DNA of 64,000 nt, taken from assembly GCA_023379385.1 (NCBI GenBank), contig JAMCUS010000027.1:11640-75639 (forward strand). The letters are read 5' to 3'. A model generated the notes under the pieces. The model had not been told where the DNA came from. It searched no databases and saw nothing but the letters and a program-made list of their open reading frames with translations. The position numbers and the translations under genes are program-made. This document shows positions 11,169 to 57,862 of the stretch, piece after piece. This DNA is from Thermoplasmatota archaeon (GTDB lineage: Archaea; Thermoplasmatota; Thermoplasmata; Lutacidiplasmatales; JAMCUS01). Position 1 is the first letter of the stretch. Every line of letters starts with the position of its first letter.

Positions 11169-11286
11169 CCTCCTGTTTTTAATGTAGACATTATAACCCA
11201 AGGCTTGTACAGATATAGCATGCAAAATTTATAAATAGAATAAAATTCAAATGACGCTTACAGTATATGCATCTGGTGTAAGAATT

Positions 11287-11400
11287 CAGTCGTCTGAAGA
11301 AGTTCAAAAATACTAGCTATCCTTTAATATATGTGTAAATCGCAGCATCTATCATATGAAACAGTAACAATTCTAACTTCAAACCGCTGAACTCTTACCA
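11287..11400. repeat. ~110-bp repeat R1, immediately downstream of the 3' end of the TnpB remnant; IS200/IS605 right-end or omega-RNA-scaffold-like
   Basis: About 90% identical to 20721-20830 (agtcgtctgaag..ttcaaaaatactagctatcctttaatatat.tgtaaatc.cagc.tctat.atatgaa.cagtaacaattctaactt). Its position next to the tnpB 3' end is as expected for an IS605-family right end. Confidence 0.6.
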
Positions 11401-11429
11401 TCTGGTGAATATAGTTGCAATTTTTATGG

Positions 11430-11762
11430 TCATTCATTTACTGAACCTCCATTTAACTTGCCTGATAGCGAACGGAGACTGTATTCTCCCGTCAATCCTA
11501 AGAATTCTAAATTCTTTGCACCTGCATGATCTGCATTATCTACATGACCACATCGCAAACATAAGAAGTTAGCTCCCCTACGATTTCTTCTGTCTATGTT
11601 GCCACATTCAGGGCATCTCTGCGATGTCTTCCAGGGGTCTTTGCGATATACGGATATCCCAAGCTCTTCACATATCTGCTCTAACCGATTGCCGACCCTG
11701 GCATAATGCCAGAAAGACAGAAGTCTGTTTACCCCACGTGAAAACCTTCCACGTTTATTCAT
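11430..11762 (-). pseudogene. tnpB: TnpB (IS200/IS605 OrfB) C-terminal remnant carrying only the RuvC-III and zinc-finger region
   Basis: 110 aa containing ...TSQRCPECGNIDRRNRRGANFLCLRCGHVDNADHAGAKNL. Full TnpB is about 400 aa. The frame ends at the nfo stop codon, so the N-terminal ~300 aa are missing. Confidence 0.65.
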
Positions 11763-14082: not shown

Positions 14083-14432
14083 ACGTGTTTTATTTTTAAA
14101 TTACAATAGTTTTGCATATATATGTAAAAATAAAAATGCTATTTCTATTTATCTATTAATAACCAGATATTGATTTTAAATATTATAAAATATTAAAGAT
14201 TATTCAATATTCTGTAATTCTATGTCATTTATTGAATCCAGAAGTTAATAAATATTTTTATATAATGAAATAAATGTAAAACTATTGTAAATCAAATAGG
14301 ATGTTCAAACGGCGTTTACAATAAAGACCGGTACAGTATGTATACATATATCTTTTAAAAAATTCTCATAGAAGATCCGTTAAAATGAAATTGCGATGCA
14401 TTGACAGGAATAGACCCCTATTTTTGTAAAAA

Positions 14433-15128
14433 CTAAATCAGGGCAGATTTAAGAACTCTCATGCCGATTCCTGTGGATATTTCATATGGTCTGATCTCTT
14501 TTGAGTGTTTGGAACCTCTCATTTTTACAATTTTGAGAGTGGTGGTGTATTGTCTAGAGTTATTCAATTCATAGAATTGCAGGAGGACAACTCCGTCTAC
14601 AACATATTCTATCAACCCGTCCCTTGATGTCGTAGGTTTGAGTGGATTTACCTCTGAAGTGAATATCGTTGTGGCACCGGTTCTTTTAAATATGGATGCA
14701 AGCTTGAAAAGATTGGTTCTTCGTTCATCTTCTGAATCAAACAGCATTGCAAAAAGTGATATTGAATCAAATAGAATTCTGGAGGCTCCAAATGTTTTAA
14801 TAGATTCTTCCAGTTCAGTAGATAATTTCAAAAAAGTACCCTTGGAATCTTCAGGATTTAATTTTATGGCTAATAATTTTTTTTCATTTGCATATTTCTC
14901 TAAATCCCAGTTAAAATTAGAACTATTTTCAACAATTGATCTGAACTCTTCTTCTAACGATACGAGTATTGCTTTTTCACCTGCCTTAAGCCCTGCTACA
15001 AGAAACTGCAAACCAAGAGTGGTTTTTCCAGTTCCACATTCCCCTAAAACTGCCAGTGTGTGCCCCTGCACAATACCTTTATCCAGCATATCATCAAGGC
15101 CGTCTATACCTGATACAATTTTTTTCAT
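14433..15128 (-). CDS. KaiC-like / RecA-superfamily ATPase (single domain)
   Basis: Walker A GECGTGKTTLGLQF, Walker B VVLLQ, and KaiC-type C-terminal KMRGSKH. Confidence 0.7.
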   Translation of the reverse strand: MKKIVSGIDGLDDMLDKGIVQGHTLAVLGECGTGKTTLGLQFLVAGLKAGEKAILVSLEEEFRSIVENSSNFNWDLEKYANEKKLLAIKLNPEDSKGTFLKLSTELEESIKTFGASRILFDSISLFAMLFDSEDERRTNLFKLASIFKRTGATTIFTSEVNPLKPTTSRDGLIEYVVDGVVLLQFYELNNSRQYTTTLKIVKMRGSKHSKEIRPYEISTGIGMRVLKSALI

Positions 15129-15131
15129 AAA

Positions 15132-15977
15132 TTACACCCGTTCATAATTTGAAACAACCAGACCATTAATTGAGGTTATATCTATTGCAAATCTGGAGAT
15201 TCTCATTTCATTTGCATGTACAAGTAGAGGCATAAACTTTTCTATATACATTGTACGTTGCCTTTTGGACGTTTTGTAATTTTTTAACCATTCAAATTTT
15301 ATAACACCATCAAAACAATCCTTGATGATATTTATCTTTTCTTCATTTACAATCCGATCCGTCATTGTAAAATATATTATGCCCTTCCAGGCTTTTGAAA
15401 TTCTTCTGATACCCTTCAGAAGAATCAATAGATCATCCATATCCACAGATTTTGAATACAGAAGATCTGATAAAGAATCTATTATTACTAAATTCTGTTT
15501 TCCGTATTTTTCAAGAAAAGAAACCAGAACCTCAAGAGGTTTTTTATTATCATTATTATCTGCAAGTGCCTCTAAAAGATTCTCGTTGCTCCATTTGGAG
15601 GGAACAATCGTATGCCTGAAATAGATGTTTGATAGATCTGCAAATAACATATTGCTGTTAAGTATTCTATAATATTCATCGTTGAATGATAAATTTATTT
15701 CTTCTAGAACAACCTCTCTAGGGGAGGTGAAACTTATATACGCAATCATACTTGGAAGGACCTTCTGATCAATGTCATGACCTAAAATAAACCTCTTCAT
15801 TCTTGGATTTTTTGCAGATAACAGCAATCGTGCAGCGGACGTTATTGCAAATTCCCTATAACCAGATCCATGTTCTCCTAAAAGAAGTATGCTTGAACCT
15901 TTTGGAAATCCACCACCTATGATAATATCAAAATCTGCAATTCCTGAAGGAATTTTATCGTTTATCACATTAATCAT
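15132..15977 (-). CDS. KaiC-like paralog with a degenerate P-loop (GEHGSGY in place of GxxGxGKT); probably a non-catalytic partner
   Basis: Same domain layout as the neighbouring gene (DIIIGGGFPKGSSILLLGEHGSGY). It is 3 nt upstream of 14433..15128, so the two are likely co-transcribed. Confidence 0.55.
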   Translation of the reverse strand: MINVINDKIPSGIADFDIIIGGGFPKGSSILLLGEHGSGYREFAITSAARLLLSAKNPRMKRFILGHDIDQKVLPSMIAYISFTSPREVVLEEINLSFNDEYYRILNSNMLFADLSNIYFRHTIVPSKWSNENLLEALADNNDNKKPLEVLVSFLEKYGKQNLVIIDSLSDLLYSKSVDMDDLLILLKGIRRISKAWKGIIYFTMTDRIVNEEKINIIKDCFDGVIKFEWLKNYKTSKRQRTMYIEKFMPLLVHANEMRISRFAIDITSINGLVVSNYERV

Positions 15978-16017
15978 AGCTCTATAGATTTTGTTCTATT
16001 TAATTCTTGTATATCCC

Positions 16018-16134
16018 TCAACAGGATGTAAGGGGATACCAAAGACGGCATATTTTCATCCCAAAAAATCAGTTTTTGAGCGTGAATTTTTGGAGATTTT
16101 GTTGAATTACCCAGTTCTGTTACGACCTGTCGAA
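16018..16134. mobile_element. MITE-like element, copy III (reverse orientation): ~14-bp terminal inverted repeats TCAACAGGATGTAA / TTACGACCTGTCGA around an ~80-bp core
   Basis: The core aaggggataccaaagacggcatattttcatcccaaaaaatcagtttttgagcgtgaatttttggagattttgttgaattaccc is the reverse complement of the cores at 28915-28995 and 57730-57815. Confidence 0.65.
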
Positions 16135-16167
16135 AGTCATTATGTTGTTGGACCAGGTACATAGCCA

Positions 16168-16974
16168 TTATTCTAGGAGCATCTTCTCCATTCGCAATCT
16201 TGTTTTGACCTTATCGAGCTGTGCTAATGTTTTTTTGTTTTGTTCGGTTAAAATTGATACAGCATGTTCTATATGAGGCATAACGGGTTCTAGATATGGT
16301 AAATTTATTGAAATATTTTTAAAATTCAATCTCAAATTCCTAGGTTTGCGGTTTCCTTCTATGTATTCAATAAAAAGTCCTTTATAAGTGATTTTAATTG
16401 ATGTTATTTTTCCACCAAAAAGAATTAATGTAAAAAGTGTTTTTTTAAAGTAATCAGGAGGGTTGTATTGTTTATTAAGGCAATATTTTTCATACACATC
16501 TAACATATCAGGATCAAGTAAAGCAGCATATGATTCATTTATCTCAGTGACTTCAAGTGATGAAGGATATAATTGAATATTCTTTGCTAATTCTATTATT
16601 GCAGAAAAATATTTTCTTTTTGTTTCTTTAATATAAGGTATTAATGGTTCTGCGTTTTTAATCATATACAATATCATTTTCGGATGAAATAATCCTGTAT
16701 TCAATATTGATTTAAATCTGCCGAATTGTTTATTATTTTTATTAAATATTTTTATTCCTATGGTGGTCTTTAGGCACAGAAGATATTTCTTCCCGTGATA
16801 TTTTACAGGGAATTCATGTGTACCTGTCGACTTCACACCCAATTCATCAATAACAGATGTAAGTTCATTAACTATTTTTTCATTCATGGACTTCACTGTA
16901 CCGCTCTCCAGTTGACCAATTTGCTTCAGTAACGATAAATGCTTTTTATATAGTTCATATAAGTTATCAGTCAT
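16168..16974 (-). CDS. 268-aa uncharacterized protein, paralog 1 of a family linked to the MoxR-VWA operon
   Basis: Shares the YELYKK(H/Y)L(S/P)L N-terminus and the LYMIKNAEPLIP(Y/H)(I/V)(K/E)ETKRKYFSAIIELAKN(I/V)QL core with 17096..17902. Also carries the LILFGG(K/E)I and NLP(Y/F)LEPVMP motifs. Confidence 0.5.
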   Translation of the reverse strand: MTDNLYELYKKHLSLLKQIGQLESGTVKSMNEKIVNELTSVIDELGVKSTGTHEFPVKYHGKKYLLCLKTTIGIKIFNKNNKQFGRFKSILNTGLFHPKMILYMIKNAEPLIPYIKETKRKYFSAIIELAKNIQLYPSSLEVTEINESYAALLDPDMLDVYEKYCLNKQYNPPDYFKKTLFTLILFGGKITSIKITYKGLFIEYIEGNRKPRNLRLNFKNISINLPYLEPVMPHIEHAVSILTEQNKKTLAQLDKVKTRLRMEKMLLE

Positions 16975-17095
16975 AATTACACCTTTTATGTTATTGCAAT
17001 GATTTAACTAATAGTAGACATATTAATTATGAGCAGGATGATATACATGAATTGTGAATTGCCTTTTCAATTTTACAGAAAAATCAGTACACTAT

Positions 17096-17902
17096 CTAAT
17101 GGTTTTCTAATTTTTCTTTGATGTTTTTTAACTGTGCCAATATTTTTTCATTTTCTTTTTTGATTGATTTTACAACCTTCAATATTTTTTTTAAATTTGA
17201 GACTGTGTCTTCTATCTGTGGCATTACTGGTTCTAGAAATGGCAGGTTCATCAACAAATTATTGTAATTTAATTTTAATTTTAAAACATCTGCATTATAT
17301 CCATTTTTGTAGGCAAGGTAAAAATCGTCAATTTCTTTTATTTCTCCTCCAAAAAGAATTAATCTAACAAGTGATGGTGTTTCATAGTCATCATCATTTA
17401 TATATGTACCCATCTCTTCGGAATTAGGTAAGGACGCATATGATTCATTAATTTTTTTAGTAATCAATAAGGGTGAACATAATTGTACATTCTTGGCTAA
17501 TTCTATTATTGCAGAAAAATATTTCCGTTTTGTTTCTTCAACATGAGGTATTAATGGCTCTGCATTTTTAATCATATACAATACAATTTCAAAATTATCA
17601 TATGAGCATTTCGTTATTGTTGTTAATTCACTGAACTGTTTTGTGGTTATGTCAAATTTTTTTATTCCTAGATCGCCGTTACCTGTGCATAAAAGATAAT
17701 CTTCATTCTTATACCTTACAGGAGTTGTATACATATCTGATGATAAATCCCCGAGCCCTTTCATCAATTTTCTAATCGTGGATGCAAATTCATCAACAAT
17801 CATGCAATCCATCTGATACAAATCAATGTCATCCTGATGAATCCGAATCCACTCAATTAAAGGCAGATATTTTTTATACAATTCATATATATGGTGTATC
17901 AA
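17096..17902 (-). CDS. 268-aa uncharacterized protein, paralog 2; third gene of the MoxR / VWA / 268-aa operon
   Basis: Its start codon overlaps the end of the VWA gene (17899-17902). See paralog 1 for shared motifs. Confidence 0.5.
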   Translation of the reverse strand: MIHHIYELYKKYLPLIEWIRIHQDDIDLYQMDCMIVDEFASTIRKLMKGLGDLSSDMYTTPVRYKNEDYLLCTGNGDLGIKKFDITTKQFSELTTITKCSYDNFEIVLYMIKNAEPLIPHVEETKRKYFSAIIELAKNVQLCSPLLITKKINESYASLPNSEEMGTYINDDDYETPSLVRLILFGGEIKEIDDFYLAYKNGYNADVLKLKLNYNNLLMNLPFLEPVMPQIEDTVSNLKKILKVVKSIKKENEKILAQLKNIKEKLENH

Positions 17903-19173
17903 AGCTCCACCCCCAACACCTGTATGCCTTTTAAACCTACTTCTTTTGGGTGTATACCATATGAAATATTGACAGTATTTAGCTTATGCAATAATGATCT
18001 CACAACCTTTTTATTTATATCACCTATATAAAAATCGCTGAAAATTATAACCGTGTCATTATTTTTCCTGATCTCTATTGCTTTCTTTAAGGCAGGTAAT
18101 ATGAGAGTCCCACCGCCACCTTTAAGTCCTTTTTTCACTTTGTCAATATCTGATGGACTAGTTACTTTTATTTCTTCATATACGGATGCATCCCAGGGTA
18201 TTACACGTATATTAGCCTTCAACCTCGCTATACTGTATAACTCTGCAAGGTATTCCTTTAGAATTTTATCATCAATACTGCCAGATGTATCAACCAGTAT
18301 AATGACATCTTTTTTCCCGTATGGTTGTTTACATGGAAGATCTGGATTCTTTCTGTTTTCCCTGCTCCACGATTTGCGCATCTCATTTCCAAGTGATCTA
18401 TCCATCTGGTCACGGAGTAGTCTTCTCCAGTCTACTTTTGATTCAGCCATTTCGTTCATTATACGCTTAGCGCCACCTGGTACAGTGCCTGCCAGATTTG
18501 TAAGAGCTATCGCCTCTCCCAGTTTGCCTTTCAGCATGTTTTCAATGTTGACAACTTTTGTTTTTCCGTTTAATTCGTCATCTCCCACATTTAGCAAAAC
18601 AACACCACCTGGTAATGGTAATACCAAAATGACTTTTTCATTTGCTAATAATACTTTTGATATAATGGTAGTTATTTTACCGCTCAACACCAATTTTGCT
18701 ACAATTTCTTCAACACTAAGTTTCTCAAGTTCATTAGTATCCATACCTGTAATATCTGAAAGTATTTTTATAGTAATCCTATTCTCCGGCATATGAAAAT
18801 TTCCATCTGCTAAAAAATCAAGATCTAATATATGGTTAATTTTTGCATCTTCAATAATATTTAAATAGTTATCAGATATGTTGTACATCTTCTTCATAGC
18901 TAAATCTCTATAAAAGTGGTTCATTATAATGTGTAATGCTTCATGCGATATTATATATATCTTTTCATCCAGATCATAATTGAAAAATTTTTTAGTCAAC
19001 AGTATAGAGAAAGAAGTCTCATTGCATGAAACAGCTATTGTTTCAATATCTTCACTTTCATTTACAAGATAAACGGGTATCTTCTTTAGAAGGTACCCAT
19101 AAAACGGGTATCTTAGCGTTGTTATGGTCAGTAAATTATTAAATTCTTGAATTTCATCCATATCAAACACCAT
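17899..19173 (-). CDS. VWA-domain protein with an N-terminal putative zinc-metallopeptidase domain (HExxH), a typical MoxR partner
   Basis: HEALHIIMNH (HExxH). The MIDAS motif ILVDTSGSID (DxSxS) sits in a C-terminal VWA fold. The gene overlaps the upstream MoxR gene by 11 nt. Confidence 0.65.
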   Translation of the reverse strand: MVFDMDEIQEFNNLLTITTLRYPFYGYLLKKIPVYLVNESEDIETIAVSCNETSFSILLTKKFFNYDLDEKIYIISHEALHIIMNHFYRDLAMKKMYNISDNYLNIIEDAKINHILDLDFLADGNFHMPENRITIKILSDITGMDTNELEKLSVEEIVAKLVLSGKITTIISKVLLANEKVILVLPLPGGVVLLNVGDDELNGKTKVVNIENMLKGKLGEAIALTNLAGTVPGGAKRIMNEMAESKVDWRRLLRDQMDRSLGNEMRKSWSRENRKNPDLPCKQPYGKKDVIILVDTSGSIDDKILKEYLAELYSIARLKANIRVIPWDASVYEEIKVTSPSDIDKVKKGLKGGGGTLILPALKKAIEIRKNNDTVIIFSDFYIGDINKKVVRSLLHKLNTVNISYGIHPKEVGLKGIQVLGVEL

Positions 19174-20254
19174 TCAATGGAGCAAGTTCGTCTAGTAACT
19201 GATCTATAAAGATTTTAAATGGCATTCTGTATATGATCTTCTCTCTATTCCTTTTAGGAATAAGTTTGATCAATAATACCATCATATCACGTTCACTTTT
19301 TATTAAAATACTTAAAAATTTACCTAAATTAGAACTATGTTCTTTTATGGTTTTGTCAATGTTTTGGACAATGGTATGAAGCATCAAATATTTTTGTTCA
19401 TTTTTAAACTTGTACCATTGATCTGGCTGTGATAAAAATTCACCAATGGTGGGTATTTTAGTTCTGATAAATGATATAAAATAGGCAGATGTATCTGGAC
19501 CCAGTATTCCTTCAGAGATCGTTGGAATCAAATTATCAGGTGCATTAAACAATTTCTTCGCCAGTTCGGTGTATGCTCTTGGAGTTGGAAATGGAGTCAG
19601 TGATTCTCCACTGCTCTTTTTAATGAATTCATTTGGATATGCCTTCAGAAATGTAGCTACTATACGATTCCAGTCAGATATAGAATCCATATATTCAATC
19701 CATTCATCTATGTTTGGTGGTTCCACCTCAACTATCATCATTTTATTTATCAATGGTGCAGGAAGATTTCCGGCATCAGATGACCATTCAGGCGGATTTC
19801 CGGCACAAATCAATGTAATGCCTGTAGATAACTTAACATTCCATCCTATTTCCCCTTCATAAATCATGGAATAGAATAAGACTCTCTGATCTGCTCTCTG
19901 GACATTGGTCAGTTCGTCGATGAATAATAGACCGAGTATATCTTTTCTGGCCAATATATCAATAGTTAATGGAGATTTAAATAGAATTATATCACTTCCT
20001 CTCGGAATCGATATATCCTCTGGAAATATGTGAGGAGCAATTATTCTTAAATATACATAATATTTTTCTGATTGTTCATAAATTTTCATTAATTTATTGG
20101 GATCAGCGTCTTTAAGATCAATAAATTCACGGTCGCCAGATTGGTGCATTGCGTATTGCCTGACAATTTCTGTTTTGCCAATTCCTGGTGCACCTATAAA
20201 CATCGAACGATGCAATTGCATTTTATTCATTTTACCAATTTCTGTTATTTTCAT
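19163..20254 (-). CDS. MoxR-like AAA+ ATPase
   Basis: Walker A FIGAPGIGKT, Walker B LLFIDELTN, sensor-1 ICAGNP. The 363-aa length is typical of MoxR-type single AAA+ proteins. Confidence 0.65.
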   Translation of the reverse strand: MKITEIGKMNKMQLHRSMFIGAPGIGKTEIVRQYAMHQSGDREFIDLKDADPNKLMKIYEQSEKYYVYLRIIAPHIFPEDISIPRGSDIILFKSPLTIDILARKDILGLLFIDELTNVQRADQRVLFYSMIYEGEIGWNVKLSTGITLICAGNPPEWSSDAGNLPAPLINKMMIVEVEPPNIDEWIEYMDSISDWNRIVATFLKAYPNEFIKKSSGESLTPFPTPRAYTELAKKLFNAPDNLIPTISEGILGPDTSAYFISFIRTKIPTIGEFLSQPDQWYKFKNEQKYLMLHTIVQNIDKTIKEHSSNLGKFLSILIKSERDMMVLLIKLIPKRNREKIIYRMPFKIFIDQLLDELAPLNGV

Positions 20255-20720
20255 TCACAACTCACCCTCGTTTCCATTGACTTGTACAATTTTCCTTTAT
20301 TTATTTTTATATTTTACTAAGGTCAATAAAAGGATGAAAGACTTTTATTGACATAATGTAAATGGTTTGCCATAAAGTTGATAAAAGTAATGCATAAATA
20401 GACCCTCAGAATTAGAAGATTTTTGACATGCTGAAAATACCATTTTATCATATATGCCATACTACATAATGGCATTTAATTGTTTCTGTTTAAATCACGC
20501 ATATAAATATGTAATATAATTAGACTAATAGATATAAATCTAACATTTAGACGTGTAAAATATTATTTATAAAAAAAGTATGTAACATTTATTTTTATAA
20601 ATTTAATAACATATATGCAAGAAAAATCCGATAGTTGATACAAAGATGTTTTATAACTACAGTATAATATTTAGGTATTGCTAATAAATACCATTGTAAA
20701 TTTTTGTTTTTATAAGAATT

Positions 20721-20830
20721 AGTCGTCTGAAGTTCAAAAATACTAGCTATCCTTTAATATATATGTAAATCACAGCGTCTATTATATGAACCAGTAACAA
20801 TTCTAACTTTAAACTACTGAAACATTACGA
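20721..20830. repeat. ~110-bp repeat R2, a solo copy of the RE-like repeat in direct orientation relative to R1, with no adjacent tnpB
   Basis: About 90% identical to 11287-11400. Confidence 0.6.
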
Positions 20831-20887
20831 TTTTTGGTAAATTATATATAACGGGTTCAATGTCTATATTATGGTGTTACAGGAGTT

Positions 20888-23611
20888 ATGAAAAACAGTT
20901 ACAGATGTTATGTAATTTATATCGTAATAACAGTAGTTATCATAAGTGCTGTTAATCTGACGGTTATTAGTAACAATGAAATGAATAGTAAAAAGCTGTC
21001 TAAAAATAGCACATTTGCAATTCCAGACATATCCTCTAACTATAACGCTACTTTTTCATCTTCTAAAATACTATGGTCATATCCAGTTAACGGAAATCAA
21101 TCATATATTATTCAGAGTACAAATGAGTTTCCGTTAAATATAGGCGTGTCTGGAGTTCTTGGTGCAAATATAACCGGAGATGGATTTGCAGATTTTATTA
21201 TTCCATATGCTGTAAAAAATAATGCTACTTTAAGGGCAGTTGATTCAAATGGTGGAACAATTATATGGGAAGACAATTTTTCAAATTACATGGAGTATTT
21301 AATGGCTGGCACGATAGGTAAGATGCCCATGATAATGGTATTGACAGGTAATGTTACACCACCGCCATATTCATTTTCATTTAATGGACCTGGTTATGTA
21401 AACATCTCAATGGTAAATGGAATTAATGGAAAAACAATTTGGTATAGAAACAATACTTTATCAGATAAGGAGGGCATGTTTTATACACCCCAAGATACAG
21501 TCTATGTTAATGGCAATCCAGCAATAACAACGTATTCATTGTTTTATCGTAATGGCTTACCAAATACAAATAATAATGGAGAGTACAATGTTACGCTTTA
21601 TAATGTAACGATATATGCTATAAAAAATATAAATGGTGTATCTTTATGGATGCATAATTATGACGCGTACTCAATATATATATATTTGCCACCATATTTA
21701 TCGTTAGCTACCGTGCCTGGTCTTAGATGTGGTGGGGTATACTATAAATACACTTATTTCAAAAATAATATAATGTATACAAATGATGTACTTCTTGATG
21801 CAGATAATGGTAGTATCATATGGAATGTATCATCTGCAAACCCTGGGTTAATATTGACAGGTGGAACTTCAATGGAGGGGACAACCGCATTAGGAAATTT
21901 TGATGGAGGTAGTTTATATAATTTAGCATACCCTATAATTTCTTATTCCATAATTATTAAAAACGGGGAATATGGATTAGCATATGTAAATTTTGGTATA
22001 GAGGTTATTAATATTACTGATGGTAAATCAATATATTCAAGATTGTATGGACTTGATGCGGATACAACAGTAATGCAGAATATGCAAAGTGCATACGTAA
22101 CTGAATCCTTGATGAATGTAGATAATGCTACAGGCGGTATAGGTTCCACTTTTGATATAAATGGAACAGCAATACTGGTTATTAACATTAGGAATAGAAG
22201 TACAACTTTTGAAAATATTACAGCGATAAATATTGCTAAAAACAAAACTTTATGGAAGACAGAGCTTGCGGAGATTCCGGTATATGGTATAACAACCCTA
22301 TCCTACATGAAAATAGACGGAAAGGATACCCCTGTTATTACGGTTATAAATATTCTTGGCTCTACATATTATATTGACGGACTAAATGGAACAATATTGA
22401 GTATAATACCACCACAACCACGTTTCCATGAAACAGCAAATCCGTGGGGATATGCATATCCTATTGTTCTTAATATCACAACCCTAAATAATGGGTATCC
22501 AGATATAGCGTATATAACTCCAAATGTAAAAACGTCATTTGGCTACAATATAACAGTGGAGAATGATTCTAATGGCAATGTTATAGGCACAAGAACAATA
22601 AATATTTCGCTACCACCTATCAAAAATGCAACCTATAATACGAGCTATTACGTTTTGCCTACTTACTTTGCATCTAAAATTTATATAGAGGCATCATTTT
22701 CATTGAATTATAAAAATAATTGGACAAATTATGTGTACGTAATAAACCCTGCCAATATGGGAATTGTACAAAAAGATGTTATAAATATGACAGGCATGAA
22801 TCCTGACGCAATGTATTCACTACCACTTTCTGTATTTAAAGCAATGTATAGAAGTAATGCAATAAAATATTTTACCACCAATCTCAATATAATAACATTT
22901 GCTATCCAGACTAATAATAGATTTTATGCAATGGAGTATATACCTCCTAAAAATTTGACGGTTAATCTCACCGAGACAGGTACAACAGGAATTGTACCAT
23001 TTACTGAAAATTTTTATGCTAATTCAAGTGGAGGTATATCACCCTATAACTATACCTGGTACGAGAATGGTAAAGTAATACCTATTTACAACAATGAATC
23101 AATTATTTATTTCAATACATCTGGTATATACAACATCTCTGTAAAGGTTACTGATGAATCTATGAATGTTGCATTCAGCAATGTAACAATATATGCAAAA
23201 AATAAAACAGTGATGATATACACATATACACTGAATGGAACAGTTACAGATGTTAACGGAACACCTATTGGAGGTGTAAACGTATCTGTTAATAACACCA
23301 AATATGTGTACACCAATGGTAACGGTGTATTCAGCATGAACATGACAAACGGAACATATTTAATAAAATTCAGCAAAGTGGGGTATGTAAATGAGACATA
23401 CCCAGTATCTATAACAGGAAATAATATAACCTTAAAAATAGTACTAAAATCAATAAGTAATACGACTACAAATAAAAGCTATGGTAAATCTACTAAAAGT
23501 TCTGGATTGAATGAACTGGATATAGGAATTATATTTGCAGTGGTTTTGGGTGTTGTTCTATCAATAGTATATCTCTTTTACCCTAAAAAAAGAAGGGGAT
23601 TAAAACGGTAA
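20888..23611 (+). CDS. large surface protein with N-terminal TM/signal, a beta-rich (propeller-like) region, a PKD domain, a CarboxypepD_reg-like domain, and a C-terminal TM with a short basic tail
   Basis: 907 aa. The C-terminal ~200 aa align with the 46080..48992 protein (PF.ENFYANSSGGISPYNYTW...IYNISVKVTDESMNVA; GTVTDVNGTPIGGVNVSV...GTYLIKFSKVGY). TM near the end, then PKKRRGLKR. Confidence 0.55.
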   Translation: MKNSYRCYVIYIVITVVIISAVNLTVISNNEMNSKKLSKNSTFAIPDISSNYNATFSSSKILWSYPVNGNQSYIIQSTNEFPLNIGVSGVLGANITGDGFADFIIPYAVKNNATLRAVDSNGGTIIWEDNFSNYMEYLMAGTIGKMPMIMVLTGNVTPPPYSFSFNGPGYVNISMVNGINGKTIWYRNNTLSDKEGMFYTPQDTVYVNGNPAITTYSLFYRNGLPNTNNNGEYNVTLYNVTIYAIKNINGVSLWMHNYDAYSIYIYLPPYLSLATVPGLRCGGVYYKYTYFKNNIMYTNDVLLDADNGSIIWNVSSANPGLILTGGTSMEGTTALGNFDGGSLYNLAYPIISYSIIIKNGEYGLAYVNFGIEVINITDGKSIYSRLYGLDADTTVMQNMQSAYVTESLMNVDNATGGIGSTFDINGTAILVINIRNRSTTFENITAINIAKNKTLWKTELAEIPVYGITTLSYMKIDGKDTPVITVINILGSTYYIDGLNGTILSIIPPQPRFHETANPWGYAYPIVLNITTLNNGYPDIAYITPNVKTSFGYNITVENDSNGNVIGTRTINISLPPIKNATYNTSYYVLPTYFASKIYIEASFSLNYKNNWTNYVYVINPANMGIVQKDVINMTGMNPDAMYSLPLSVFKAMYRSNAIKYFTTNLNIITFAIQTNNRFYAMEYIPPKNLTVNLTETGTTGIVPFTENFYANSSGGISPYNYTWYENGKVIPIYNNESIIYFNTSGIYNISVKVTDESMNVAFSNVTIYAKNKTVMIYTYTLNGTVTDVNGTPIGGVNVSVNNTKYVYTNGNGVFSMNMTNGTYLIKFSKVGYVNETYPVSITGNNITLKIVLKSISNTTTNKSYGKSTKSSGLNELDIGIIFAVVLGVVLSIVYLFYPKKRRGLKR

Positions 23612-28897: not shown

Positions 28898-29014
28898 CTC
28901 GACAGGTTGTAATGGAAAGGGATAATTCAACAAAATCTTCAAAAATTAACGCTCAAAAACTGATTTTTTAGGATCAAAATAGACCATTTTTGATATTCTT
29001 TTACAGCCTGTCGA
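28898..29014. mobile_element. MITE-like element, copy I (forward): TIRs TCGACAGGTTGTAA / TTACAGCCTGTCGA around an ~80-bp core
   Basis: The core gggataattcaacaaaatcttcaaaaattaacgctcaaaaactgattttttaggat... is shared with 57730-57815, and in reverse complement with the 16-kb and 36-kb copies. Confidence 0.65.
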
Positions 29015-29072
29015 CTGTTGAATTGCTTCAAAAAGCAAAAATAAAGAAGTTAAAGATAGGTTACACTAAGGC

Positions 29073-29168
29073 ATTGTAAATATATAATGTGAACATTTAC
29101 AACATAAGAACTTATTTGTCAAAATTAGATATAAATAATCATCTAATTAAATTACAGTTCCTAAGATC
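29073..29168. repeat. repeat A copy 1 (~100 bp), taaggcattgtaaatatataatgtgaacatttacaacataagaacttatttgtcaaaatt.gatataaataatcatctaattaaattacagttcctaag
   Basis: Near-identical to 36121-36225. Confidence 0.85.
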
Positions 29169-30011
29169 TGCAAATGTCAATCAAATCATATAAACTGTTT
29201 AACCCCAAAAGAATGGGTTAAAAGTCAGGTTGGAATTTGGGAATTTGCTTACGAAAAAAGGGATATAAGAGATAAAAGCGTACACCCTGCTGTATTTCCG
29301 ATAGGTTTACCAAAAAGAGTCATACAGCTATTTACACATGAAGGCGAATTAGTATTAGATCCATTTGCTGGTATAGGCACTACATTAGTAGCAGCAGCTG
29401 ACACTAATAGAAATGCAGTAGGATTTGATATAAATAAAGAGTATGTGGAGTATGCAAAAAAAAGACTTCTCCAATCCAGAATATCTAGCTTTACAAAAGG
29501 CAACCCTATTCAGATTCCAATAGCTGCAGATGCAAGAGACAGTATTAATTATTTTGAAAATGAGTCTATATCGCTAATAGTGACATCTACACCATACGCA
29601 GATATGTTAAACAGGTCAAGAAAGAGCAAAAGCATGCGAGGTACAACTAGAGAAAATGAACATTATGGTAAAAATCAACAGTATTCTAATGACCATAGAG
29701 ATTTGGGTATACTTCCATCAAAAATTTTTGCAAAAGAGCTTGCTCAAATCTACAAAAGCATGTTGCCGCTATTGAAACAAAAAGGTCATGCCGTTATAAA
29801 TATAAATGATCCTTGGATTGATGCTATTAAATATGGTAGAAGAGAACCATTGCATTCTTACATAATTGAGGAAATGAATGAAGTAGGCTACGAATTAAGA
29901 AATGTCCTAATATGGGATAAGAGAAACTTAGTAAACGGTGTTGGTATATTCGGTTGGCCTAATAATTATATTAAACTAGGTACTACATTTGAATATATCT
30001 TGGACTTTTGA
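29151..30011 (+). pseudogene. DNA N6-adenine/N4-cytosine methyltransferase (PF01555-type), circularly permuted with motif I ahead of motif IV; the open frame has no start codon upstream of motif I
   Basis: The frame is open from 29151, just after a stop inside repeat A. It encodes ...HPAVFPIGLPKRVIQLFTHEGELVLDPFAGIGTT (FxGxG motif I), then SLIVTSTPYADM (S/DPPY-type motif IV), then LIWDK. The first ATG/GTG/TTG is at 29445, downstream of motif I. Confidence 0.55.
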
Positions 30012-30028: not shown

Positions 30029-30370
30029 TTAGACTATTTTCTTTCTATTACCAAAACAAAGTTCCAATTTGTTTGGACTTACTCTAAAACAGGTTCCATG
30101 GTCATGTGTTTTACCGTTCGCATATTGGCCGATTCTTACATCTACTAATATTATACCTTGTTTAAGCAATTTTATGAAATTTACAAAACTAAAACCACTT
30201 AACAACCATGCTTCATTATACCAAAACTCTTCATTAGACCCTTTGCCCCTGCTCTCGGCTTTTACATACATAATTTTTGGTAGTTTCCTCTCAAAAGACC
30301 TCATCAATGTATTCTTGTCCCAGTATCCATATTCTTTTCTCCCGAAATCTAACCCGAGTTTGGACATCAA
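30029..30370 (-). CDS. hypothetical protein convergent with the methyltransferase; possibly a truncated restriction-endonuclease partner
   Basis: 113-aa ORF whose N-terminus abuts the repeat-B junction. No diagnostic motif. The restriction-endonuclease link is positional only. Confidence 0.25.
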   Translation of the reverse strand: MMSKLGLDFGRKEYGYWDKNTLMRSFERKLPKIMYVKAESRGKGSNEEFWYNEAWLLSGFSFVNFIKLLKQGIILVDVRIGQYANGKTHDHGTCFRVSPNKLELCFGNRKKIV

Positions 30371-30490
30371 TCAAAAAATAGTTCGTACTGGCATAGATGA
30401 TAATTTGTAGTATTAATTAAAATTAATTCGGAACCAGGGCATCTATCTTAAGTATTTTAACTATCTCCTTTTCTTCCACCCCCATTCTCT
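30359..30490. repeat. repeat B copy 1 (~135 bp), extending into the transposase C-terminal coding region
   Basis: aacccgagtttggacatcaatcaaaaaatagttcgtactggcatagatgataatttgtagtattaattaaaattaattcgg... matches 36365-36500. Confidence 0.8.
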
Positions 30491-31022
30491 CCAGTTTGAA
30501 TCTGACATCGTTATCATTTATTATTAATCCTCCCAGCCTTATTTGTTTCAGTATCGATACCATTCTGCCCATTGGCATGCTCTCTCCTCTAACCACCTCT
30601 ATTTTCCACTGTATGTATCTGTAAAACAGCAGTCCCATCACACACATGAACGTGTGTGCTCTGATCCGTTTATCAAGTCTATGGTATATTGGCATTACTG
30701 GAAAGAGAAGTACATCTTTCAGTATGTGGTAATCCTCTTCCATTCCACTCCTCGCAAAATAGGTTCTAACGATCCTTTCATTACTCCAATCTTTCCTGTC
30801 TGTGAATATTACTGTCTTCCCGAATCCACTCCTCTTCTCTTTCTCGGCTTCCTTATCTATCCAGTATGTTAATTTCACTCCATTATCTCCAGCAGCACTG
30901 CCCTCTATCGTGTTTCCTGCATGATACCGGAACAGACTCCTCCACTTCTCCGGTATCAGTGCTATCACCCTCCTGTTAATACTCTCTATTGATGATGGCC
31001 TGCCTCTACGGTTCGCATTCAT
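30423..31022 (-). pseudogene. IS4-family transposase C-terminal fragment (199 aa; N-terminal half missing)
   Basis: Carries the IS4 Y-(2)-R-(3)-E-(6)-K signature as YFARSGMEEDYHILK. No upstream coding continuation. Homologous remnants lie at 36432..36632 and 57325..57585. Confidence 0.6.
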
Positions 31023-35968: not shown

Positions 35969-36084
35969 GTAGACAGGCTGTAATGGAATACCAAAAACAG
36001 TCTATTTTAACACTAAAAAACATTTTTGGGTGTGAATTTTTGAGGTATATCTCCCCTAAATTCTATTCTCTTACACCCCGTAGA
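35969..36084. mobile_element. MITE-like element, copy II (reverse orientation, more diverged termini)
   Basis: Left end tagacaggctgtaatgg. Core ggaataccaaaaacagtctattttaacactaaaaaacatttttgggtgtgaatttttgagg is the reverse complement of 57735-57815. Confidence 0.55.
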
Positions 36085-36120: not shown

Positions 36121-36225
36121 TAAGGCATTGTAAATATATAATGTGAACATTTACAACATAAGAACTTATTTGTCAAAATTTGATATAAATAATCATCTAA
36201 TTAAATTACAGTTCCTAAGCATTCT
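36121..36225. repeat. repeat A copy 2
   Basis: Near-identical to 29073-29168. Confidence 0.85.
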
Positions 36226-36364
36226 CTGAACCGATAGGGAACGGTATAGAGGGTACAGCATTGTACCTATGAAGTTTAAGCATCTTTGAATTTGACAAGA
36301 TGATAACTTCCAAAGGTGGTTGTTAACATGGTTAACAAAAATCATAACCTTGCTACTCAAACCC

Positions 36365-36500
36365 AAGTTTGGACGTCAATCAAAAAATACTTCGTACTGG
36401 CATACGTAGTAACCTGTAGTATTAATTAAAATTAATTCGTAGCTAAAGCATCTATATTAAGTGTTTTGATTATCTCCTTTTCTTCCACCCCCATGTTCTC
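36365..36500. repeat. repeat B copy 2
   Basis: Matches 30359-30490. Confidence 0.8.
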
Positions 36501-36632
36501 CTGTCTGATCTTATCAGTAGTACCCAAATAAATATTCATAGTAACCTTAAGCTTGCCATTGACACGTTCAGTTTTTCTGAGGTGGTAGTGAACAGTATCA
36601 TTTGGTTTTTTCAAATCCCAAATAAAGGTCAC
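36432..36632 (-). pseudogene. IS4-family transposase terminal remnant (66 aa)
   Basis: C-terminal MGVEEKEIIKTLNIDALATN matches MGVEEKEIVKILKIDALVPN of 30423..31022. Confidence 0.5.
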
Positions 36633-57585: not shown

Positions 57586-57712
57586 ATTTATAAATGATTT
57601 TATCGTTCCGAATACTCTCTCTATTCTCCATAGCTCTCTGTATCTCAGATCCTAGGTGCTTGATAATTTTGGTTTTCTTTTCTTTTCTTTTTTCTTTTCT
57701 TTATGCCATTTT

Positions 57713-57836
57713 AGACAGACAGTAATAGAACGGGATAATTCAACAAAATTTTCAAAAATTCACACTCAAAAAATGTTTTTTTAGGATGAAAATATGTCGT
57801 TCTTGGGTTTTTGGTATTCCCTTACAACCTGTTGAG
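57713..57836. mobile_element. MITE-like element, copy IV (forward)
   Basis: tagacagacagtaatag...gggataattcaacaaaattttcaaaaattcacactcaaaaaatgtttttttaggatgaaaatatg...ttacaacctgttga. Confidence 0.6.
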
Positions 57837-57862
57837 CGCGCTATACAAGTTTTAAAAAAACA

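Follow-up and report, generated by a model that had tools for sequence, protein, structure and literature searches.

A virus-type ATPase and zincin-vWA gene pair followed by two orphan paralogs in a Thermoplasmatota chromosome

In the 64,000-nt stretch of a Thermoplasmatota chromosome analysed here (the window), six adjacent genes on one strand raise the question of which of them form a system and what that system would do. The original prediction had joined a MoxR ATPase, a VWA-HExxH protein and two 268-aa proteins into a candidate NTPase-driven system beside a KaiC-like pair, on a probable accessory segment. All six ORFs were found on the minus strand at their predicted coordinates, and four of them are treated below as one cassette (16168-20254).

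Gene layout and flanking elements

The cassette begins with a 363-aa AAA+ ATPase of MoxR-class fold and phage N4 gp24 / PHROG 1297 type (19163..20254), followed by a 424-aa fusion of a zincin-like metallopeptidase and a vWA (MIDAS) domain of the DUF2201_N+DUF2201 / PHROG 1314 / N4 gp25 type (17899..19173), and by two 268-aa proteins, 268A (17096..17902) and 268B (16168..16974). We confirmed that the ATPase and VWA genes share 11 nt and that the VWA stop falls inside the start of 268A, the two genes sharing 4 nt (TTGA); with the Shine-Dalgarno-like motifs found there, these overlaps uphold the tight translational coupling proposed for the three genes. The VWA gene has an alternative in-frame ATG start one base past the ATPase stop (TGA-T-ATG), a Shine-Dalgarno-like tract (GGGGGTGGAG) lies just upstream of the VWA/268A overlap, and 268B carries its own GGTG RBS-like motif. 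Judged by sequence, an AT-rich TATA-like tract on the minus strand (20295..20314), located 41-60 nt before the start codon of the ATPase gene, is the candidate promoter of the cassette, and a Shine-Dalgarno-like motif (GAGGGTGAG; 20261-20269, minus strand) between this tract and the ATPase start is its candidate RBS. GC3 of the cassette was 0.24-0.29, compared to 0.24-0.34 in neighbouring genes. The cassette was identical or nearly identical across 13 independent assemblies. Between strains, substitutions numbered 0-2 in each of the ATPase, VWA and KaiC genes, and those in the ATPase gene were synonymous only. No integrase, att-tRNA or other viral gene was found flanking the cassette.

Downstream of 268B, a 190-nt spacer leads to the KaiC-like genes and harbours a MITE-like element some 116 nt long (about 16018-16133, minus strand). 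Its prediction as a MITE was borne out by terminal inverted repeats (CGACAGGTYGTAA/TTACAKCCTGTYG) and by four copies in the window (the others at about 28899-29014, 35973-36042 and 57710-57856) against none expected by chance. The element has a T6 tract in the transcription direction, and one copy folds as a hairpin (z -4.3). The KaiC-like genes, which lie outside the cassette, encode a 281-aa protein with a degenerate P-loop (15132..15977, minus strand) and its partner, a 231-aa KaiC_arch_3-like ATPase (14433..15128, minus strand) with a full KaiC domain (PF06745, E 1.1e-53; TIGR03880, 228 bits against a cut-off of 249 bits). They resemble archaeal KaiC_arch_3 / ArlH-like RecA-superfamily ATPase pairs, the smaller protein coming near the TIGR03880 cut-off and the larger having a KaiC/ArlH-like domain. 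That one member has a dead P-loop was confirmed, as the 281-aa protein has GEHGSGYRE for Walker A; all its orthologs have a degenerate GExGxGxxEF, and the dead P-loop is ancestral. The two neighbours of the cassette are conserved as a pair of their own.

The direct repeats of ~110 nt reported on either side of the segment are also real (88-89% identity across 103-113 nt, against a chance expectation of none). The upstream, solo copy (20713..20835) lies between the ATPase gene and a divergent 907-aa surface-protein gene, while the downstream copy (about 11280-11405) is found 3' of, and 25 nt away from, a C-terminal remnant of TnpB 110 aa in length (11430-11762, minus strand; PF07282, E 9e-17). 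Only the downstream copy showed a minus-strand fold (z -2.3), and a search of the repeat against Rfam gave no match. Because of its position next to the TnpB remnant, the downstream copy is probably an IS200/IS605-type right end or an omega-RNA remnant, and the two flanking repeats are probably IS (TnpB) end remnants and not island borders. The idea of an accessory segment was not supported, since the genes inside include nfo, an MFS transporter and the conserved KaiC pair, and since the segment has the GC3 of its neighbours and is bordered by a repeat that abuts the TnpB remnant; checked for presence or absence, it was carried by all of the 13 related contigs.

The ATPase and zincin-vWA pair

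The assignment of the ATPase to MoxR was supported by its fold. Its AF2 model (pLDDT 91.6) found NorQ (also in complexes with the NorD VWA domain) and CbbQ2 as best PDB matches (target-normalised TM 0.62-0.67), at just 11-13% sequence identity. Viral folds, namely phage G gp566, PBS1 and RaK2 'Gp24-like', matched it over the full length (TM up to 0.74, E 3e-17). AAA families of Pfam gave sub-threshold matches only, under every AAA gathering score, and PHROG 1297 matched over nearly the full length (E 1.8e-38). The motifs common to 25 homologs (Walker A GAPGIGKT, Walker B LLFIDE, AGNPPEWS...LPxPLxN[KR] and PTPR) parallel those of MoxR proteins. The VWA protein was confirmed as an intact fusion of a zincin (HExxH) and a vWA (MIDAS) domain, with catalytic and MIDAS residues conserved (H77-E78-xx-H81, H86, D295xS297xS299, T356 and D380 kept in 61-62 of 62 homologs). 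It scored over the gathering scores of PF13203 (51 bits) and PF09967 (40.8 bits) and matched PHROG 1314 nearly full length (E 1.2e-39). At 64 of the 77 non-self loci, the VWA gene lies directly 3' of the ATPase gene on the same strand.

The pair is a member of a predominantly viral family (PHROG 1297/1314, N4 gp24/gp25 type). By tblastn, the ATPase matched 333 phage records and the VWA protein 139 phage records compared to 7 plasmid records, and a relative occurs on each of at least 246 IMG/VR contigs. The pair matches the MoxR + metallopeptidase-vWA chaperone pair described in jumbo phages (group 2.2; Iyer et al. 2021, PMC7824862), and N4 gp24/gp25(vWFA) belong to the 14-gene core of N4-like phages (PMC4193335), where they are middle-expressed beside replication genes. 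The window and phage pairs are alike over nearly their full length (E about 1e-38/-39), in the order ATPase then vWA on one strand and in the fusion of an N-terminal HExxH zincin to a C-terminal vWA/MIDAS domain; the phage proteins superimpose on the whole window ATPase, including its C-terminal helical domain. Unlike the phage pair, however, the window pair is part of a cellular chromosome, that of an archaeon, with housekeeping and surface-protein genes around it, shares just 22-29% identity with the bacterial phage proteins and is followed by two orphan paralogs, which none of the phage records has.

Among cellular systems, NorQ-NorD, CbbQ-CbbO and RavA-ViaA share the logic of an AAA+ protein with a vWA-MIDAS partner encoded by adjacent genes, but the window ATPase extends further, by a C-terminal helical domain of about 110 aa that is absent from NorQ, CbbQ and RavA, and its cofactor carries a zincin peptidase that NorD, CbbO and ViaA lack. 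The surroundings of the cassette contain no client genes of the NOR, Rubisco or respiratory kind. The MoxR (p618) and vWA (p892) proteins of Acidianus two-tailed virus, an archaeal-virus pair whose interaction is biochemically evidenced and which is implicated in virion-structure assembly, namely tail development (PMC4124505), are a precedent for a viral chaperone role, although they are much larger (618 and 892 aa), have no reported peptidase domain and are likened here by description.

The closest homologs of both genes are on one contig (L010; ATPase 45% identical, VWA E 1e-79), which carries 24 co-directional genes, nearly all of them without Pfam matches. From their gene architecture, this contig and a second one (L006) appear virus-like; no hallmark virion genes were found in the examined parts of either, and IMG/VR held no close relative of them.

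The 268-aa paralogs

We confirmed that 268B, 121 nt downstream of 268A, is its tandem paralog (41% identity, E 2e-56). The two differ in charge, 268A being acidic (pI 5.5) and 268B basic (pI 9.5). 268A starts with TTG, a start supported by the conservation of residues 5-15 in the paralog, while some gene callers chose a 235-aa form instead. Both proteins had been described as having no recognisable motif, and searches of Pfam, NCBIfam, PADLOC and PHROGs indeed gave nothing significant. A word-indexed search of 5.8 billion clustered proteins and an exhaustive HMMER search of 1.84 billion cluster representatives each returned 268A and 268B only. On this sequence evidence the family is uncharacterised, effectively orphan and confined to this lineage; AF2 modelled 268A poorly (pLDDT 50).

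Diversifying selection, which had been suggested for the family, was not supported: the paralogs gave a dN/dS of about 0.5 at a nearly saturated dS, and a 35-residue block has a dN of 0.07. Between strains, 268B is the local polymorphism hot spot: of its 11 substitutions, 9 are nonsynonymous, and these cluster in codons 38-72; this 9:2 ratio is the neutral expectation because nonsynonymous and synonymous sites stand at 4:1.

Contig L010 carries a four-member paralog family downstream of its pair, with three other small genes between the family and the vWA gene. Among 9,986 ORFs, 268A was the best match outside the family (jackhmmer E 0.003), and the similarity is colinear over about 160 residues, with a Smith-Waterman score of 74 compared to 35 ± 5 for shuffled sequences (p about 4e-5); hhalign gave a P of 0.0013 and a probability of just 19%, and 268B alone fell below significance. 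This weak similarity suggests that the L010 family are possible remote homologs of the 268-aa proteins. Since such a family lies 3' of the closest homologous pair, a fast-evolving third component could plausibly be linked to these genes, and to this extent the prediction of a variable third component stands. The third-position gene differs between lineages: at a Njordarchaeota locus the vWA gene is immediately followed by a tandem pair of overlapping paralogs (292 and 281 aa), and other archaeal chromosomes have the pair without any similar third gene.

Alternative and proposed functions

An unlikely explanation is that the cassette is an NTPase-driven conflict (defence) system, in which the 268-aa paralogs would sense an invader and thereby unleash a MoxR ATPase and peptidase-vWA effector that are otherwise held inactive. 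Published MoxR-vWA-VMAP/iSTAND systems (Kaur et al. 2020, PMC7159879; PMC12839542) do combine a MoxR protein with vWA-fused peptidase effectors and a rapidly evolving third component, the third-position gene varies here by lineage, and no gene of the region is more polymorphic than 268B, whose changes are mostly nonsynonymous. In Ignisphaera, moreover, the pair lies amid DUF1156, N6_N4 methylases and a DUF87/HerA-like ATPase, in what resembles a defence island. However, the VMAP, iSTAND and bpMoxR families were not detected among the window proteins and PADLOC gave no match at a meaningful level for the four cassette proteins. The published effectors are usually trypsin or caspase, whereas the window protein has a DUF2201_N-family zincin as its N-terminal peptidase; the window vWA and ATPase families are viral, far commoner in virus genomes than in plasmids, and the organism is not a multicellular bacterium. 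The N4-like core pair beside replication genes better fits viral housekeeping or counter-defence than host immunity, and both the paralog dN/dS and the neutral polymorphism ratio argue against defence. With no VMAP or PADLOC matches and a pair family that is mainly viral, the pair does not belong to the described cellular ternary conflict systems.

It is quite improbable that a virus or mobile element once integrated here and is now decaying without current function, the 268-aa ORFs being fast-drifting leftovers. The viral affinities of the pair, the orphan status of the 268-aa genes and the nearby TnpB remnant, solo IS-end-like repeat and MITE are consistent with such decay, and the Thermoproteus ATPase ortholog, which is split (295 + 79 aa), indicates that such pairs do decay in chromosomes. 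Against this, all four ORFs are intact, the catalytic, Walker and MIDAS residues are all kept, the coupled start/stop overlaps are still in place, and the near-identity of the cassette in the 13 assemblies, the synonymous-only changes in the ATPase gene, the low-dN block of the paralogs and the lack of flanking viral genes all point away from a remnant. Cooperation of the KaiC-like pair with the MoxR, vWA and 268-aa proteins in a six-gene system is very improbable indeed. The six genes are contiguous on one strand and a strong terminator was not identified, but the MITE with its T6 tract lies between the two blocks, and none of the ~170 non-self loci, nearly all around ATPase relatives, has a KaiC homolog nearby. 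Other Thermoplasmata contigs carry the KaiC-like pair (64-65% and 44-49% identity), kept together at two loci (L184 and L185) in unrelated contexts, with no MoxR, vWA or 268-aa genes nearby; the pair is thus an independent two-gene module.

We lean towards a cassette that descends from viruses and works as a chaperone/protease, the 268-aa paralogs being its clients or adaptors. On the model of NorQ-NorD, CbbQ-CbbO and RavA-ViaA, which have been solved or studied, a hexameric ring of the ATPase would be the docking site of the vWA domain, whose MIDAS site would hold the client, and the client would be remodelled by ATP hydrolysis and cut by the fused HExxH peptidase. This mechanism is borrowed from distant MoxR-vWA pairs. 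From their position only, 268A and 268B would be proteins matured, assembled or released by the machine, and their opposite net charge suggests a possible hetero-oligomer. The most likely source of the cassette is a virus or another mobile element similar to contig L010, and the cassette would have been resident in its host long enough for its composition to match, while the KaiC-like pair is an unrelated conserved Thermoplasmata module set off from it by the MITE. A two-gene module type otherwise found mainly in viruses is carried here on an archaeal chromosome, together with two paralogs that have almost no relatives.

The ATPase and its zincin-vWA partner

The window (G+C content about 35%) derives from metagenome-assembled genomes that are nearly identical to one another, form one population and are labelled 'Candidatus Thermoplasmatota archaeon'. 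The window is of chromosomal origin: genes for Pelota, aRF1, GAPDH and endonuclease IV (nfo) are present, alongside MFS transporters and PKD/surface glycoproteins, virion genes and an integrase were not found, and a tRNA scan found none. An Rfam scan of the window gave no match. The six-gene layout of the original prediction, junctions included, was borne out by the sequence: all on the minus strand, a 363-aa ATPase (19163-20254) is followed by a 424-aa vWA protein (17899-19173), two 268-aa ORFs, 268A (17096-17902) and 268B (16168-16974), and KaiC-like ORFs of 281 aa (15132-15977) and 231 aa (14433-15128). The ATPase and vWA genes overlap by 11 nt, or are separated by 1 nt if the vWA gene uses an alternative ATG one base past the ATPase stop (TGA-T-ATG). 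The vWA and 268A genes have four bases in common, TTGA, with GGGGGTGGAG just before. Some gene callers give 268A as a 235-aa form; the TTG start is credible because residues 5-15 (IYELYKKYLPL / LYELYKKHLSL) are kept in both paralogs. The spacer between 268A and 268B measures 121 nt, with AAGGTG ahead of the 268B ATG, and that between 268B and the KaiC-like gene 190 nt.

The core elements of the MoxR class (Walker A, Walker B, sensor-1 Asn and Arg finger) were all found in the ATPase. Across 25 aligned homologs, Walker A GAPGIGKT, Walker B LLFIDE, AGN(153) and PLxN[KR](171) were conserved at 90% or above, the window ATPase having Lys at the variable K/R position of the last motif; AGNPPEWS...LPxPLxN[KR] and a sensor-2-like PTPR were further motifs of this alignment. 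We take AGNPPEWS...LPxPLxNR to parallel the 'ATQNP...LPEAQLDRF' region of MoxR. The ATPase falls below the curated Pfam thresholds for AAA_5 (E 0.11; 12.9 bits, under the cut-off of 22) and AAA_3, its AAA matches being sub-threshold only, and within the family 14 of the 25 members match AAA_5 and one matches AAA_3 (E ≤ 1e-3). By these scores it belongs to a divergent subfamily. An AF2 model built on the 25-homolog alignment (pLDDT 91.6) was compared to the PDB by Foldseek, and the best matches were NorQ (9qh4 and others, including NorQ alone and NorQ bound to the NorD vWA domain) and CbbQ2 (6l1q), then dynein AAA modules (E 1e-7 to 4e-6; TM normalised to target 0.62-0.67). Judged from the model, the nearest solved fold is that of a MoxR-family member; a sequence-profile search of the PDB gave Walker-A-level matches only. 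Predicted viral structures were matched much more strongly than the PDB (full-length, E 3e-17, TM 0.74), among them phage G gp566, PBS1 and the RaK2 'Gp24-like protein'.

The partner scored over the Pfam gathering scores for PF13203 (DUF2201_N, putative metallopeptidase) and PF09967 (DUF2201, vWA-like). Its zincin HExxH (H77/E78/H81) with H86 and its MIDAS (D295-x-S297-x-S299, T356, D380) are intact, and both are conserved in 61-62 of 62 homologs. The zincin peptidase fused to the vWA domain is the DUF2201_N domain, a family-wide feature and not a variable effector. In PHROG 1314 and in phage records of PA5oct-like jumbo phages (H37, H39-H41), the family is labelled 'HNH endonuclease' or 'homing endonuclease', which is probably an annotation error because the HExxH and MIDAS architecture is conserved.

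Both genes matched phage families, the ATPase PHROG 1297 (E 1.8e-38, profile positions 28-349 of 356) and the zincin-vWA protein PHROG 1314 (E 1.2e-39, positions 26-363 of 394). By tblastn, the ATPase matched 333 phage records, including rV5-like, N4-like/Litunavirus, Campylobacter, Thermus and Aeromonas phages, while the vWA protein matched 139 phage records compared to 7 of 72,556 plasmids. At least 246 IMG/VR contigs carried a relative, with none above about 29% identity to the ATPase among the matches listed. In 64 of 77 non-self loci that have the ATPase, the gene following it on its strand, immediately or nearly so, is the one for the vWA protein, and in Litunavirus PAP02 the 'ATPase' and 'metallopeptidase' genes stand immediately ahead of the helicase and DNA polymerase genes. 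Together, the ATPase and the metallopeptidase-vWA protein form a virus-type module (N4 gp24/gp25 type; PHROG 1297 plus PHROG 1314). The pair is part of the core gene set of N4-like phages and also occurs widely among rV5-like, jumbo and many uncultured phages; the 14 genes of that core include N4 gp24, whose function is unknown, and gp25 (vWFA), both of them middle genes (PMC4193335). For the MoxR plus metallopeptidase-vWA pair of jumbo phages, involvement in virion assembly and processing has been proposed (PMC7824862), and ATV p618/p892 provide a biochemically supported precedent from an archaeal virus (PMC4124505). No experimental function was found in the literature on the DUF2201-type pair.

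The window pair is not in a virus genome and has a chromosomal setting. About 164 closer homologs of the ATPase (25-49% identity) are nearly all archaeal, from Pyrobaculum, Thermoproteus, Ignisphaera, Bathyarchaeia, Sulfolobales, Njordarchaeota and 'Woesearchaeota'. Among the matches listed, a GTDB genome scan gave mainly gut Firmicutes, which are probable prophages, and three short archaeal contigs; genomes related to the host were not among them. The two closest homologs with readable context (comparison loci L006/7 and L010/11) lie in runs of 24-33 co-directional, mainly small and almost Pfam-free genes together with ribonucleotide reductase, and we read both as virus-like or element-like; no hallmark viral genes were detected by PHROGs in the stretches of L006 and L010 examined. 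In Ignisphaera, Thermoproteus and Bathyarchaeia, the pair forms a two-gene unit whose neighbours vary. In one Ignisphaera locus (L180, 1-17083), the pair has as neighbours a DUF1156 methylase, an N6_N4 methyltransferase, a DUF87/HerA-like ATPase and two Pfam-less proteins of roughly 770 aa, a setting that resembles a defence island. A Thermoproteus locus (L181, 963-2097) has an intact vWA gene, and ahead of it the ATPase ortholog is broken into two ORFs (295 and 79 aa); the locus adjoins metabolic genes and the gene for ribosomal protein S4e and may be a decaying chromosomal copy.

The tandem 268-aa paralogs and candidate counterparts

268A and 268B are 41% identical (E 2e-56). They were recognised by none of the curated libraries, with no Pfam match at E ≤ 0.03 and no PADLOC match. 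Only the two paralogs themselves were returned by a word-indexed search of 5.8 billion clustered proteins and by an exhaustive HMMER search of 1.84 billion representatives with a profile built from the two sequences. Nothing was found by tblastn against 50,697 phage records and nothing significant by hmmsearch --max in 11,118 ORFs around ATPase relatives, and hhalign with single sequences stayed under 2% probability for 26 ORFs located behind vWA genes. The AF2 model of 268A, built on a two-sequence alignment, was unreliable (pLDDT 50) and too poor for a fold search; its low-confidence secondary structure consists of beta-meanders and a long C-terminal helix, not beta-alpha-beta.

The diversifying selection that had been suggested for the paralogs was not demonstrated, because their dN/dS is about 0.5 (0.44/0.87) with dS near saturation. 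A central block of 35 residues (LYMIKNAEPLIP..ETKRKYFSAIIELAKN.QL) is much closer between them (dN 0.07, dS 0.27). Between near-identical strains, 268B carries 11 substitutions, nine of them nonsynonymous and clustered in codons 38-72, compared to 0-2 in the ATPase, vWA and KaiC genes and 0-3 in neighbouring genes overall, and is a local polymorphism hot spot; the 9:2 ratio of nonsynonymous to synonymous changes equals the neutral expectation. Gene conversion as the origin of these polymorphisms was considered and is not supported, only two of eight amino-acid changes being towards the 268A residue when compared by eye. The paralogs differ in charge, 268A being acidic (pI 5.5, net -6) and 268B basic (pI 9.5, net +14), and such opposite charges would suit a heterodimer.

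Candidate counterparts were sought behind the pair in other genomes. The L010 contig holds the closest relatives of both pair genes (ATPase 45% identity; vWA E 1e-79) among 24 co-directional genes, almost all of them without a Pfam match. At L010 8235-12208 (also in L011 and L202), a family of four paralogs of 238, 178, 258 and 181 aa is encoded 1.3-5.3 kb behind the vWA gene and in its orientation. In an iterated search started from the 238-aa member, the best out-of-family match among 9,986 ORFs was 268A (E 0.003), and the four-member profile matched 268A with E 0.03. A profile-profile comparison of the two families gave P 0.0013 at a probability of only 19%. The Smith-Waterman score was 74, where 1000 shuffles gave 35±5 (Gumbel p about 4e-5). 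Residues 100-261 and 82-226 align colinearly, and the matching parts are the conserved central block and a C-terminal 'EN-K-hh..h+' helix. 268B alone reached no significance against the L010 family, and searches of JGI metagenomes and IMG/VR for further members found the same contig only. Overall, these alignments make it likely, short of established, that the L010 family consists of remote homologs of the 268-aa proteins.

A layout mirroring that of the window was found on a Njordarchaeota MAG contig (L100, 4175-5889), where overlapping tandem paralogs of 292 and 281 aa, both very basic, come immediately after the vWA gene. No sequence link to the 268 family was found for the downstream proteins of L100, L180 or L006, and the acid/base complementarity did not recur in the L010 or L100 paralogs. 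With the L010 and L100 arrangements, a fast-evolving, often duplicated gene behind the pair is recurrent; it is not universal, as the two-gene units of other archaeal genomes show.

Repeats and the island question

The 64 kb contain four copies of a MITE-like element (about 116 nt) that has terminal inverted repeats CGACAGGTTGTAA/TTACAGCCTGTCG and matched no Rfam family. The copies lie at 28899-29014 (plus strand; a long near-perfect hairpin, z -4.3), 35973-36042, 57710-57856 (plus) and, in the spacer from 268B to the KaiC-like gene, 16018-16133 (minus). The last has a T6 run in gene orientation. Oligo-T is an archaeal transcription termination signal, and the run may terminate transcription before the KaiC pair.

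The two flanking repeats of about 110 nt (11280-11405 and 20713-20835) are real and lie 9.4 kb apart, the second upstream of the ATPase gene. A 110-aa ORF at 11430-11762 (minus strand), 18 nt after nfo, corresponds to only the C-terminal Zn-ribbon/TNB part of TnpB (PF07282), and the first repeat starts 25 nt downstream of it. Since this repeat is directly 3' of the TnpB remnant, the simplest explanation is an IS200/IS605-type right end, with 20713-20835 as a solo copy; the repeats may be remnants of an IS605-type right end or omega-RNA. No full-length copy with a matching repeat end was found within the window, the repeat was absent from JGI metagenomes, and its RNA fold was mildly stable in one copy only. 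The idea that the repeats bound an accessory island was not supported, because the segment between them carries nfo, an MFS gene and the conserved KaiC pair, has an ordinary GC3 like that of its neighbours, and is present in 13 of 13 related contigs at 98.6-100% identity (a near-identical population); no tRNA or integrase marking an island border was found.

Further dispersed repeats pair 29067-29165 with 36121-36219 and 30348-30499 with 36357-36508 (99% and 85% identity). At 29445-30011, next to a gene annotated in a related contig as an MvaI/BcnI-type restriction endonuclease, there is an N6_N4 DNA methylase ORF that is truncated, and the repeat pairs with this ORF suggest that a restriction-modification locus has been rearranged. 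Between the convergent MFS and KaiC genes, the AT-rich intergenic region holds an imperfect inverted repeat of 43 nt (14095-14137 / 14254-14296; 77% complementary, arms 116 nt apart).

Extent and possible function of the cassette

The original prediction had set the system beside the KaiC-like genes. A complete KaiC domain makes up the 231-aa protein, and its 281-aa partner is without the Walker A Lys/Thr. On two contigs of other Thermoplasmata, the same two-gene unit occurs in unrelated contexts without the four cassette genes (L184, 64-65% identity; L185, 44-49%), and the degenerate GExGxGxxEF loop is common to all orthologs of the 281-aa protein, including those of Methanocellales. On these two grounds the KaiC pair is an old independent module. 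No KaiC homolog was found near about 170 non-self comparison loci, nearly all of them around ATPase relatives. A six-gene system with the KaiC pair included, for which the adjacency in the window speaks, is therefore very improbable, and the pair happens to adjoin the cassette downstream. Large proteins that carry many N-glycosylation sequons and a C-terminal membrane anchor were observed beside both units: a 907-aa protein next to the cassette (20888-23611, plus strand), and a 467-aa protein next to the KaiC pair of L184 (8574-9977), which also has an N-terminal hydrophobic signal-like segment.

The evidence directly shows which families the two pair proteins belong to, that their motifs are intact and the ATPase fold is of the MoxR class, that the adjacency is conserved and the genes are tightly coupled, and that the distribution is viral. 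By analogy with NorQ-NorD, the ATPase would form a hexamer with the vWA domain docked; a client would be captured through the MIDAS and cleaved by the zincin domain. 268A and 268B would be clients or adaptors of this machine, and the four-gene block may derive from an L010-like element. An alternative explanation is a ternary defence system, with the 268-aa proteins as third component behind the pair. Ternary MoxR-vWA systems of the VMAP/iSTAND kind, however, need a VMAP or inactive-STAND third component, and neither Pfam nor PADLOC detected such a module in the 268-aa proteins; we consider this alternative unlikely. That the block is a functionless remnant is improbable too, the catalytic and MIDAS residues of the pair being intact. 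A broader proposal is that a three-part cassette, in which a MoxR-class ATPase and a zincin-vWA protein are joined by tandem paralogs of about 240-290 aa that diverge rapidly, is common to archaeal viruses or mobile elements and archaeal chromosomes, the paralog array acting as diversifying clients, decoys or sensors processed by an ATP-driven protease. The window, L010 and L100 are its candidate instances; we hold it to be improbable. If true, the cassette would be a virus-host conflict module of an undescribed kind and could give a function to the enigmatic core genes of N4 gp24/gp25 type.

Overall, the observations behind the original prediction were confirmed, and its interpretation stands in part, without the KaiC pair, diversifying selection and the island. 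What was found is a single locus, specific to one lineage and to one metagenomic population, with an inferred mechanism: a viral MoxR/metallopeptidase-vWA pair, known but functionally uncharacterised, is present here as an archaeal variant on a chromosome and is joined by orphan tandem paralogs. As a correction, KaiC-like genes are not to be counted in such systems. The tight coupling of the pair to two orphan paralogs, together with the possibly homologous L010 family, provides candidate clients that can be tested biochemically.
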